Assembly (NCBI RefSeq): GCF_052425735.1
Contig: NC_135763.1
Coordinates: forward strand, 19,716,001 to 19,780,000
DNA from: Oculina patagonica
Lineage: Eukaryota
DNA length: 64,000 nt
Direction: 5' to 3'
Shown: positions 51,205 through 53,552 of the stretch, in pieces
Layout of the letters: each line of letters begins with the position of its first letter
Position numbering within the stretch: position 1 is the stretch's first letter
Program-made: the position numbers and the translations under genes
The notes under the pieces: generated by a model
The model's database searches: none
Told to the model about the DNA's origin: nothing
The model's input: the letters and a program-made list of their open reading frames with translations, nothing else

Positions 51205-53552
51205 ATTAAGCAATGGAGGACTTTTTCCGTGCTTACATAGCCTCATCTAAACACGAGGGGGTTGGGAGAATTCGAGACAGTTATGCAAACCCTCGACTAC
51301 GTCTCGGGTTTGCATAACTTTCGAGAATTCTCCCAACCCCCCGAGTTTAAGTGTTTAGATGGGGCTATGTAAGCACGGAAAAAAGTCCTCTATTGCTTTT
51401 ATAAAATATTTCTCAAAAATAATTAGACAAATGACGGTAAGTATTTATTTACTGCTTGATTGAAATACATTTTCTCAATACCCGCGCTGGACAATCGCAT
51501 TTGCTTCTAGCCAATCAAAACGCGCTTCTGACAACACATGAACCAATCAAAATTCTTGTTACAAAAGTGAAAATCAAGTTGAAGTGGCAAGCGCTTGTGA
51601 GCGCTGTGTAGACGAAAGCGATTTCAGCTTTGAATCCTCGTTGAACTTGCACAAAAATACCGAAAGATCGGCACAAAATAGAAAAACTGTCAAAATACGG
51701 TTCTTTAAGGGAAATACTTCAAAATGAGGAGTTAAACTGAGCTGAAAGTCAGTGTTACTGTGACTGATCGCCCTTGAAAGTGATGTGCACTTGGCCGATT
51801 TGGCAGCCCGAGAACATGGTTGAGAAGTTGAGTCGTTCGTCGTGCCTTGTGAAGTTCTGCTGGCTAGGAACCATAGCACAAGCAGCGGATCCAAAATGTT
51901 GACGTTGTTGCTGGTTACCTTGGAAGATTTGCATCTGCTGATCGGCTTGTGGGTTTAGGGCAGATGAGAGAACATTGCTGCACGCCTGGAGCTGCTGAGA
52001 CGATGGACGAGCATTCTAGCTCTTGAGGGAATTTTCATTCCTGTGGCCAGACAGCGTCATGATATGGCGATTCGACCACAGTGTAATAGCAGATTCGATT
52101 CGACCACAGTGTAATAGCTGTTGCTCCGATGCAGTGGTTAGTATACACTTGAGAAAGATTGGCCGCTTTGCTGAGCTCTTTCATCATGCTCCCGAGCTTG
52201 TTTGTGCCGACACGTCGATTTTCGAACCACACGGATTCCTCTGGCCTCTTCCAGAATCGCTTCGGGAACTGGAAAAGAGCGCTGCAATTAGGGTTGAGCT
52301 TTCTGCAGTACAGTTGCAAGGCATTAAATCCGTCATTCCGGTGCTCAGTCTGGTACATTCTTCCAAGCTTCTTGTAATTTGTGGCGGTGTCATCTATCCC
52401 GCCTTGGCGTGTTTTGCTTGACTCGTTGTGGGCCATGGTAGCGTACCATTTGTTGTTTTCATCCTGGAGGAATAGGAAACTGGACTTCGTCAAGTTTCTC
52501 TGCCCTTCCCGTCCACGTCGACAGAAATACAGGGTGACATGAAACCAGACATTGTATAGGAGGCCTTGAGGAGTTGTTGGACTGATAACGTCGCTCTCTT
52601 TCAGACTCCGTAAATCCTCACGCTCGATGGCAGGTTTGTGTTTGACATTTTGTTCCCCGTGCTTCTTCATATCTTTCAGTTTGGCGTCTAACATTTGGTT
52701 GGACTGCTGGAAAGCTGGATCAGTTGCAATGTGTATGCCTTTCTTGTGTGGTGGATTGTTCAGATAGCGCTCTCAGAACCATTTCTGAATCCCAGTAGTG
52801 TGCTTCGGCTGTAGTTTCCGCCGTCTTTGGTCCGTGCCTCGGCATAAAATAGCCTTAAATTGGCATCCAATTCCTCTTTGCTTTGCACAGCAATATCACC
52901 ATTAATTCTTCTGGCCGAAGCCCATTCTGAATGAAAAAAGTTTACAATTTTTATTGCCAATGTAACATCAGAGTTTTAAGCTGAAAAAGTTTCAGAGAAA
53001 ATATATTGTATGCATATTTGACAGAAAAAAGACGGCAACCGACCGGCCGTTCAAAGCTTGTTTTGAAACATTTACAGTGTAGATTATAGTTTGGTATGCA
53101 TTTTCTTGTCCATGTTTAAATAAAGAATGTCTTCTATACAGTTTTATTGTTCTACTTTTATGCAGTTTTTACCTTGAATAACGTTTAAGGCGTATTTTGT
53201 CGCATATTTTGTGGATTTGGCTTGTGCTCCCTCGACGAGGTCGTCCAGTTCACGATCATCAAGTTGGACAAAACGCTCGGAATTTTCTTCTTTCTTTTGC
53301 CTTTTCTTCTCAGGCTCAGTGGAAAGAAGACAGTCAAACCCCAAATCAAAACAGGGCAAAACTTCCTCCATTTCTTAGCATTTATACTGTACGATAATTT
53401 TTTCTACGAGGCTTTAGGCGAAAGCTTAAAACATTTTCAAATTGAGCCGGGAAACAGAGAAAGCGTGACGTCACAACTGTGTTCACATACTCTTATTTAA
53501 ACACACCTATCGACCAATGAGAGCGCGCGTACTATTTTAATTTTTTTATAAT
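51205..53552 (-). mobile_element. Crypton-type tyrosine-recombinase DNA element
   Basis: Terminal hairpin 5 (51208-51398), spliced YR gene on the minus strand, distal motif CCAATGAGAGCGCGCGTACTATT; AATTAA at both boundaries. The paralogous region ~55555-55680 lacks the insertion. Confidence 0.85.
51900..53371 (-). pseudogene. DUF3504-like tyrosine recombinase pseudogene
   Basis: Exon 53371-53173, GT-AG intron, exon from 52926. Motifs FCRRGRE, YTNHCIGAT (HxxR Arg replaced by Gly) and SGHRNENSLKS* (expected catalytic Tyr is TAG, 52018-52016). Frameshifts at ~52775 and at a duplication ~52068-52118. Confidence 0.85.

Follow-up and report, generated by a model that had tools for sequence, protein, structure and literature searches.

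The hairpin at 51208-51398 of the window, the 64,000-nucleotide stretch of Oculina patagonica DNA analysed here, carries a tip that is inverted relative to its arms, and such inversions recur independently among the genomic copies of its family. Three results are new here: the crossover has been mapped, the flip rate has been estimated, and there is modest evidence that a flipped copy is a dead end. The flip itself most likely belongs to a known type of mutation. The observed copies and our analysis of them point to a template-switch inversion, probably made in place in the chromosome, between the two 14-bp halves of the inner stem. The analysis also gives a spacer-inversion rate per hairpin in an animal genome.

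A terminal hairpin with an inverted tip

The hairpin comprises the following features.

51208..51398, plus strand: terminal hairpin, with the tandem GA/GA mismatches of its arms on the plus strand, which is the non-coding strand of the recombinase gene
51279..51292, plus strand: left half of the 14-bp perfect inner stem and left crossover interval; C51278 has the family state and TC at 51293-51294 is flipped
51293..51305, minus strand: inverted tip (13 nt minimum), reading GA, 3-bp stem, GTA triloop, 3-bp stem, GA on the minus strand
51306..51319, plus strand: right half of the 14-bp perfect inner stem and right crossover interval; T51320 and GA at 51323-51324 have the family state

Direct reading of the plus strand placed CGAG in the arms at 51254, 51273, 51322 and 51342, and CTCG-AC-TAC-GT-CTCG at the apex (51292-51306), so that the CGAG/GTA form of the apex is on the minus strand. 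A scan of the window for GA-stem-GNA-stem-GA apices recovered this one at 51287-51311 on the minus strand. It also recovered the other hairpins, with apex and arm GA pairs together on the plus strand (27094-27118 and 42132-42295) or together on the minus strand (42865-42888 and 806-832). The initial annotation had described the apex as inverted relative to the arms and the other four hairpins as carrying all motifs on one strand; motif coordinates and strands were reproduced for the former, and the apex scan agrees with the latter. In the family majority the same tip lies on the plus strand. Since the hairpin ends a dispersed family whose majority has apex and arms on the same strand, its inverted apex is not a chance arrangement. 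Among canonical copies, the median identity of the hairpin to a reference copy was 99.5%, versus mostly 85-96% in the body.

Tandem sheared GA pairs are stable. Likewise, d(GNA) triloops with a C:G closing pair are described as very stable in DNA (PMC3201870). DNA energies computed with ViennaRNA differed little between isomers or between strands and were given no evidential weight. The window copy shows signs of decay after insertion, with a 6-nt insertion in the right arm (51347-51352) and a short tandem duplication within the recombinase gene (52063-52118). Elsewhere in the window, satellite arrays at 962-2347, 6920-9261, 16757-20020, 3131-4791 and 10046-11230 are built from related 44-nt and 55-nt units and from a 426-430-nt unit.

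The element that carries the hairpin

Judged from its sequence, the hairpin is the end of a CryptonA-type transposon with a DUF3504 tyrosine recombinase, to which the following features belong.

51206..53551, minus strand (that of the recombinase gene): whole decayed CryptonA-type element of about 2.35 kb, whose ends match those of a 1.4-kb family
51390..51408, plus strand: reverse complement of the joined right end and left end, with the geometry of a DIRS internal complementary region
52016..52975, minus strand: disrupted tyrosine recombinase gene spread over several frames (52760-52975, 52035-52772 and 52016-52180), with damaged catalytic positions
53478..53551, plus strand: right end, which terminates in TTTTATAA and contains a sub-terminal repeat similar to the outer arm of the hairpin

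In thirty aligned copies the left boundary falls sharply at the hairpin, and a common body ends in TTTTATAA, for a total of about 1.4 kb. This derivative family has both ends in common with the 2.35-kb window element, whose left end (TT-AAGCAAT) and right end (TTTTATAA) both match. Where both ends are present, the hairpin is preceded by TT in 53/53 copies and a T occupies the eighth base past the right end in 49/53. The end-junction complement at 51390-51408 sits right after the hairpin, a layout also found in the families represented by the hairpins at 27057 and 42132.

Five frames of the 2.35-kb element were compared with Pfam. The scan gave a DUF3504 match (E 1.6e-8, 35.2 bits versus a cut-off of 29.7) and a weak QRICH1 match (E 0.007), and found no Rep/HUH domain and no reverse transcriptase. 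Over 214 aa, the recombinase remnant shares 57% identity with the DUF3504 region of P0002, in which the R-H-R-Y motifs are visible; the window copy is broken. A search of the same genome for an intact copy found none, its sole yield being a truncated sibling at 96% (L032/L255) in which the outer hairpin arm is joined straight to the recombinase part and the tip is absent. A protein search among longer proteins for an intact recombinase returned two chimeric matches. A hairpin acting at the RNA level is disfavoured, since the GA/GNA motifs and the reading frame of the recombinase lie on opposite strands.

Two solo hairpins were found without a body (L061, G000:C1:4753895; L111, G000:C6:14346781). 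Both end in CTATTGCTT-AA followed by host DNA, with a T at the eighth base of the flank, as at the right flank of full copies, and the internal junction may be an alternative right end of the element. Two public runs have loose ends at 51398, which suggests further solo hairpins. Two copies (L020 and L022) occupy one and the same site within another repeat, two others of the same family (L023 and L091) form a tail-to-tail pair, and L163 is an end-to-start tandem of the 42132 family; in these arrangements, the elements target each other's ends.

Both tip orientations occur in the family

The genome searched comprises 529 Mb in 1951 contigs. Similarity searches favour query-like copies and were therefore not used for isomer counts. 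Instead, a pattern that fixes the left arm and leaves the tip open was applied, which gave 109 exact matches genome-wide; a first look had yielded 187 candidates. Among the first 100 of the 109 matches, 13 carried a flipped tip, one of them with a point change, a proportion far from 1:1 (p=1.3e-14). Matches to the pattern lay 70 on the forward and 39 on the reverse strand, perhaps by chance, versus balanced numbers in the sister families (318/328 and 169/181).

Classification of 102 distinct body-anchored copies, the window copy included, at 10 asymmetric markers revealed 71 copies canonical at every marker and 14 tip-only flips (window copy counted), all exact inversions. The remainder consisted of 3 longer inversions, 4 one-sided conversions and 10 damaged or unclassifiable copies. 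One more flipped copy (L121) was found without a body anchor. The initial annotation had proposed counting apex orientation across the genomic copies and mapping the crossover interval. The count found both isomers, which rules out the inverted apex as a fixed family trait. As for the interval, the marker pair C51278/T51320 keeps its state in tip-only flips, with the exception of L007, whose left marker is converted. Both crossovers thus fall inside the 14-bp perfect stem, 51279-51292/51306-51319.

For the window copy, neither an allele nor a duplicate in the unflipped state was seen. Every isomer count comes from one assembly. Contigs from four public runs over 50900-51750 leave the tip unphased relative to the arms, hence provide no independent read support for the flipped form; the flanks of the locus are covered in two of the runs, and strand-change joints occur inside the arms in all four. 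The single assembly and the unphased contigs would be compatible with an assembly or polishing artefact at the palindrome. We nevertheless consider such an artefact very improbable, given that the flips are exact, occur on both strands and in many contigs, differ in rate by family and are accompanied by copy-specific mutations. In addition, a read spanning the tip would also span the arm markers 15 nt away and should map correctly.

Flips recur independently, and one occurred in place

A tree was built from the bodies of 92 of the 102 copies, leaving out the window copy, six copies with short bodies and another three that were diverged or damaged. The 12 flipped copies in this tree occupy 12 separate tips, and 12 changes are needed to account for them, compared with a mean of 11.5 after shuffling. 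Constraining the flipped copies to one clade lowered lnL from -12927 to -13577, a cost of 650. A single ancestral inversion founding a subfamily is ruled out by these two results: flips recur independently, and no clade descends from any of the 12 flipped copies.

Were orientation neutral for transposition, internal branches should carry 2.1-3.6 flips; none was observed, with a probability of 0.03-0.12. The absence of clades founded by flipped copies (0/12), together with the five hairpin families of the window that keep tip and arms on one strand, constitutes modest evidence, suggestive only, that transposition depends on the polarity of the tip. The tree could be distorted by gene conversion between copies.

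L016 and L123 have a flank in common. Over longer stretches, a single insertion was found in three duplicates of host DNA, 95-97% identical over 2.5-3 kb, of which one is flipped (L297) and two are canonical (L298 and L299). The host gene, present as three duplicates on contig C8 (G000:C8:18.84-19.06 Mb), carries the insertion in an intron. The coexistence of one flipped and two canonical duplicates of a single insertion indicates that a flip occurred in place, after insertion. The insertion is located just inside the intron, and an exon of the duplicated gene resembles, by eye, a tyrosine-kinase domain.

The initial annotation had cited the flip/flop isomers of parvovirus and poxvirus termini. 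Both isomers occur in about equal amounts at these termini, where the isomer is set while a free hairpin end replicates and not in place within a chromosome, and hairpin isomers exist in poxviruses. The existence of two inverted-complementary isomers of a terminal hairpin recalls these systems, yet the analogy did not hold: the flipped fraction is 13/100 and not about 1:1, the tip alone turns and the outer mismatches are unmoved, the hairpin is embedded in a chromosome, and both forms occur among duplicates of one insertion. According to the model presented in PMC1131931, AAV resolution involves a nick at a fixed site and copying of the whole terminal repeat, so that, by inference, it could not turn the tip alone while keeping the arms mismatched; nicking and copying would turn all of the sequence within the nick and remove any mismatch beyond it. 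With no Rep/HUH domain in the five frames scanned and an in-place event contradicting it, obligatory hairpin resolution of the viral type appears extremely improbable.

Sorted by terminal branch length from young to old, flips numbered 1/29, 4/29 and 7/29, and median terminal branches were 0.012 for canonical and 0.022 for flipped copies. A model in which flips depend on time only, at about 10 flips per substitution per site, fitted 87 copies better than a constant fraction (lnL -31.8 versus -34.9, a gain of 3.1). When the two oldest copies were left out, the gain fell to 0.7 (p=0.066), and with the trend thus weakened some flips may arise during transposition. Most flips might even be made at that stage, by copying or resolution of a folded single-stranded intermediate, with in-place events a minor class. 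Along with the weak trend, a flipped and very young copy (L003, terminal branch 0.003) and the position of the hairpin at the element end, adjoining the end-junction complement, are consistent with this alternative. It is nonetheless quite unlikely in view of the triplicated insertion that flipped after insertion, the better fit of the time-only model and a flipped fraction so far from 1:1.

Flip rates in sister families and foldback controls

Isomers were counted in three hairpin families, those of 51208-51398, 27057 and 42132, the last two grouped with the first by their layout. In the 27057 family, which has a 9-bp inner stem, 10 of 646 matches showed the flipped pattern, 5 of them true flips and 5 canonical copies with a converted arm, for a flip rate of 0.8%. 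The 42132 family, with a 10-bp inner stem, yielded 4 flips and one partial event among the first 100 of 350 matches, confirmed in the loci (4%). Arranged by inner-stem length, flips amount to 5/~641 at 9 bp, 4/100 at 10 bp and 13/100 at 14 bp (first 100 matches listed for the latter two). The sister families are older, with median terminal branches of 0.043 (27057) and 0.027 (42132), yet less flipped, which indicates that the flip rate rises steeply with stem length. Within 42125-43100, the 42132 family contains a stretch also present downstream of the hairpin at 42836-42917, which suggests nested hairpin-ended elements.

As a first control, 40 copies of the non-Crypton foldback element at 26651-27060 were examined. 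Four had a symmetric centre, and 0/36 informative copies were flipped. This element has an 18-bp perfect inner stem, a 9-nt loop and a similar age (median branch 0.017); at the rate of the 51208-51398 family, about 4.4 flips would be expected among 30 copies (Fisher p=0.02). Stem length alone therefore does not set the rate. The 95% upper bound on the 0/36 result is 9.7%. A second non-Crypton foldback family (11797-12087) showed 0/30 flipped among copies biased to the most query-like. The foldback controls exclude the rate of the 51208-51398 family and are compatible with 1-4%. The element at 26651-27060, whose arms are about 200 bp long, directly adjoins a small hairpin-ended element (27057-27400) at the left end of the latter and has a sister subfamily with a fully palindromic centre.

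These rates bear on whether the two hairpin heads of an extruded cruciform could be swapped in place, as a side reaction, through strand exchange in the inner stem by the tyrosine recombinase of the Crypton or by a junction resolvase of the host. An enzyme would agree with the single interval common to the 14 tip-only flips, with the DUF3504 recombinase gene in the element, and with flips in all three hairpin families of the same layout and in neither set of non-Crypton controls (0/36 and 0/30). However, the upper bound of the first control accommodates a rate of 0.8-4% and the second is biased to query-like copies, the rate varies about 15-fold among families of one design, tracking stem length, and the longer or incomplete events either include deletions or lack reciprocity. 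We therefore regard such an enzymatic swap as unlikely. As regards a site-specific invertase, which would make a reciprocal crossover at a fixed position, the tip-only crossovers are not placeable within the perfect stem, and the longer events are non-reciprocal.

Probable template switching in place

Template switching between the stem halves, the reading that we prefer, could proceed in three steps. The nascent strand would depart from its template in the first stem half, the opposite strand would then serve as template for the tip, and the nascent strand would rejoin its original template in the second stem half. A stable GA/GNA tip on a long perfect stem would make the hairpin a hot spot for such a switch, and the flipped copies would serve poorly as substrates in any later round of transposition. 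Inter-strand switching is reported to invert spacers recurrently over short times, in yeast only where the arms exceed 9 bp (PMC8604942), and loop inversion through template switching is likewise described (PMC8794818).

Several copies preserve other outcomes. L044 and L045 carry long inversions with part of the left arm deleted, and L126 is non-reciprocal, its right-arm markers being copied leftward and retained on the right. In L010 and L148 the right GA alone is turned into its complement, in L059 and L254 the loop and one side are flipped, and in L073 one mismatch is repaired. Such non-reciprocal inversions, deletions and one-sided conversions favour template switching over resolution of the parvovirus/poxvirus type. 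Of the two origins offered by the initial annotation for the inverted apex, nicking and resolution or recombination between the arms, crossover between the arms was retained, localised to the 14-bp inner stem and with both isomers in existence, and resolution of the viral type was not. Against template switching, tip-only flips (14) exceed one-sided conversions (4). The high rate, about 10 per substitution per site, could reflect either a stable GA/GNA tip that nucleates folding or a contribution from an enzyme.

More tentatively, the Crypton recombinase might read the folded terminal hairpin strand-specifically, including its GA/GNA tip, with flips, whether made by the enzyme on the cruciform or by polymerase slip, switching a copy off. 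This remains doubtful; if true, the genome holds a ready-made on/off set of isomers that would reveal Crypton movement via folded single-stranded DNA. As a natural experiment, canonical and flipped ends provide matched substrates on which the movement of Cryptons could be tested.

Comparison with known systems

The element resembles CryptonA elements (Kojima and Jurka 2011, PMC3212892; Glomhopper, PMC13465315) in that a DUF3504-type recombinase is its only recognisable domain, in its animal host, in its abundant non-autonomous derivatives with ends in common, and in its lack of long terminal repeats. DUF3504 is itself reported to derive from Crypton recombinases (PMC3212892). Unlike the animal Cryptons described there, for which no terminal repeats are reported (PMC3212892), the 51208-51398 family has a conserved 190-nt terminal hairpin with a one-strand bias, and an internal end-junction complement. 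The words hairpin and palindrome are absent from the main texts of PMC3212892 and PMC13465315 (Glomhopper), and in the literature searched we found no description of Crypton ends with a hairpin, palindrome or stem-loop. Crypton transposition was described as unstudied as of 2011 (PMC3212892).

With DIRS elements, which combine an ITR with an ICR (PMC13465315), it shares a tyrosine recombinase and an internal sequence complementary to the joined ends. It differs in having no reverse transcriptase match in five frames and a recombinase of the DUF3504 type, which DIRS recombinases are reported not to match (PMC3212892). Membership in DIRS is ruled out, as no reverse transcriptase/RNase H gene was found in five frames of the 2.35-kb element.

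Like the flip and flop forms of AAV/parvovirus ITRs (PMC1131931) and the poxvirus isomers, the terminal hairpin exists in two inverted-complementary forms. In contrast to these viruses, it shows no 1:1 ratio, a tip-only inversion, a chromosomal setting, a change in place and no Rep gene found.

The closest parallel is with template-switch spacer inversion, in which, as here, a tip is exactly inverted between perfect arms of more than 9 bp, recurrently on terminal branches (PMC8604942; PMC8794818). Arm homogenisation and non-reciprocal events form a further likeness (L010, L148, L059, L073, L007, L126, L044 and L045; L254; and the 5 arm conversions of the 27057 family). Unlike those cases, the flipped unit here includes a tandem GA mismatch and a GNA triloop within a longer imperfect hairpin, it lies at a transposon end, and its rate is measurable over 100 copies.
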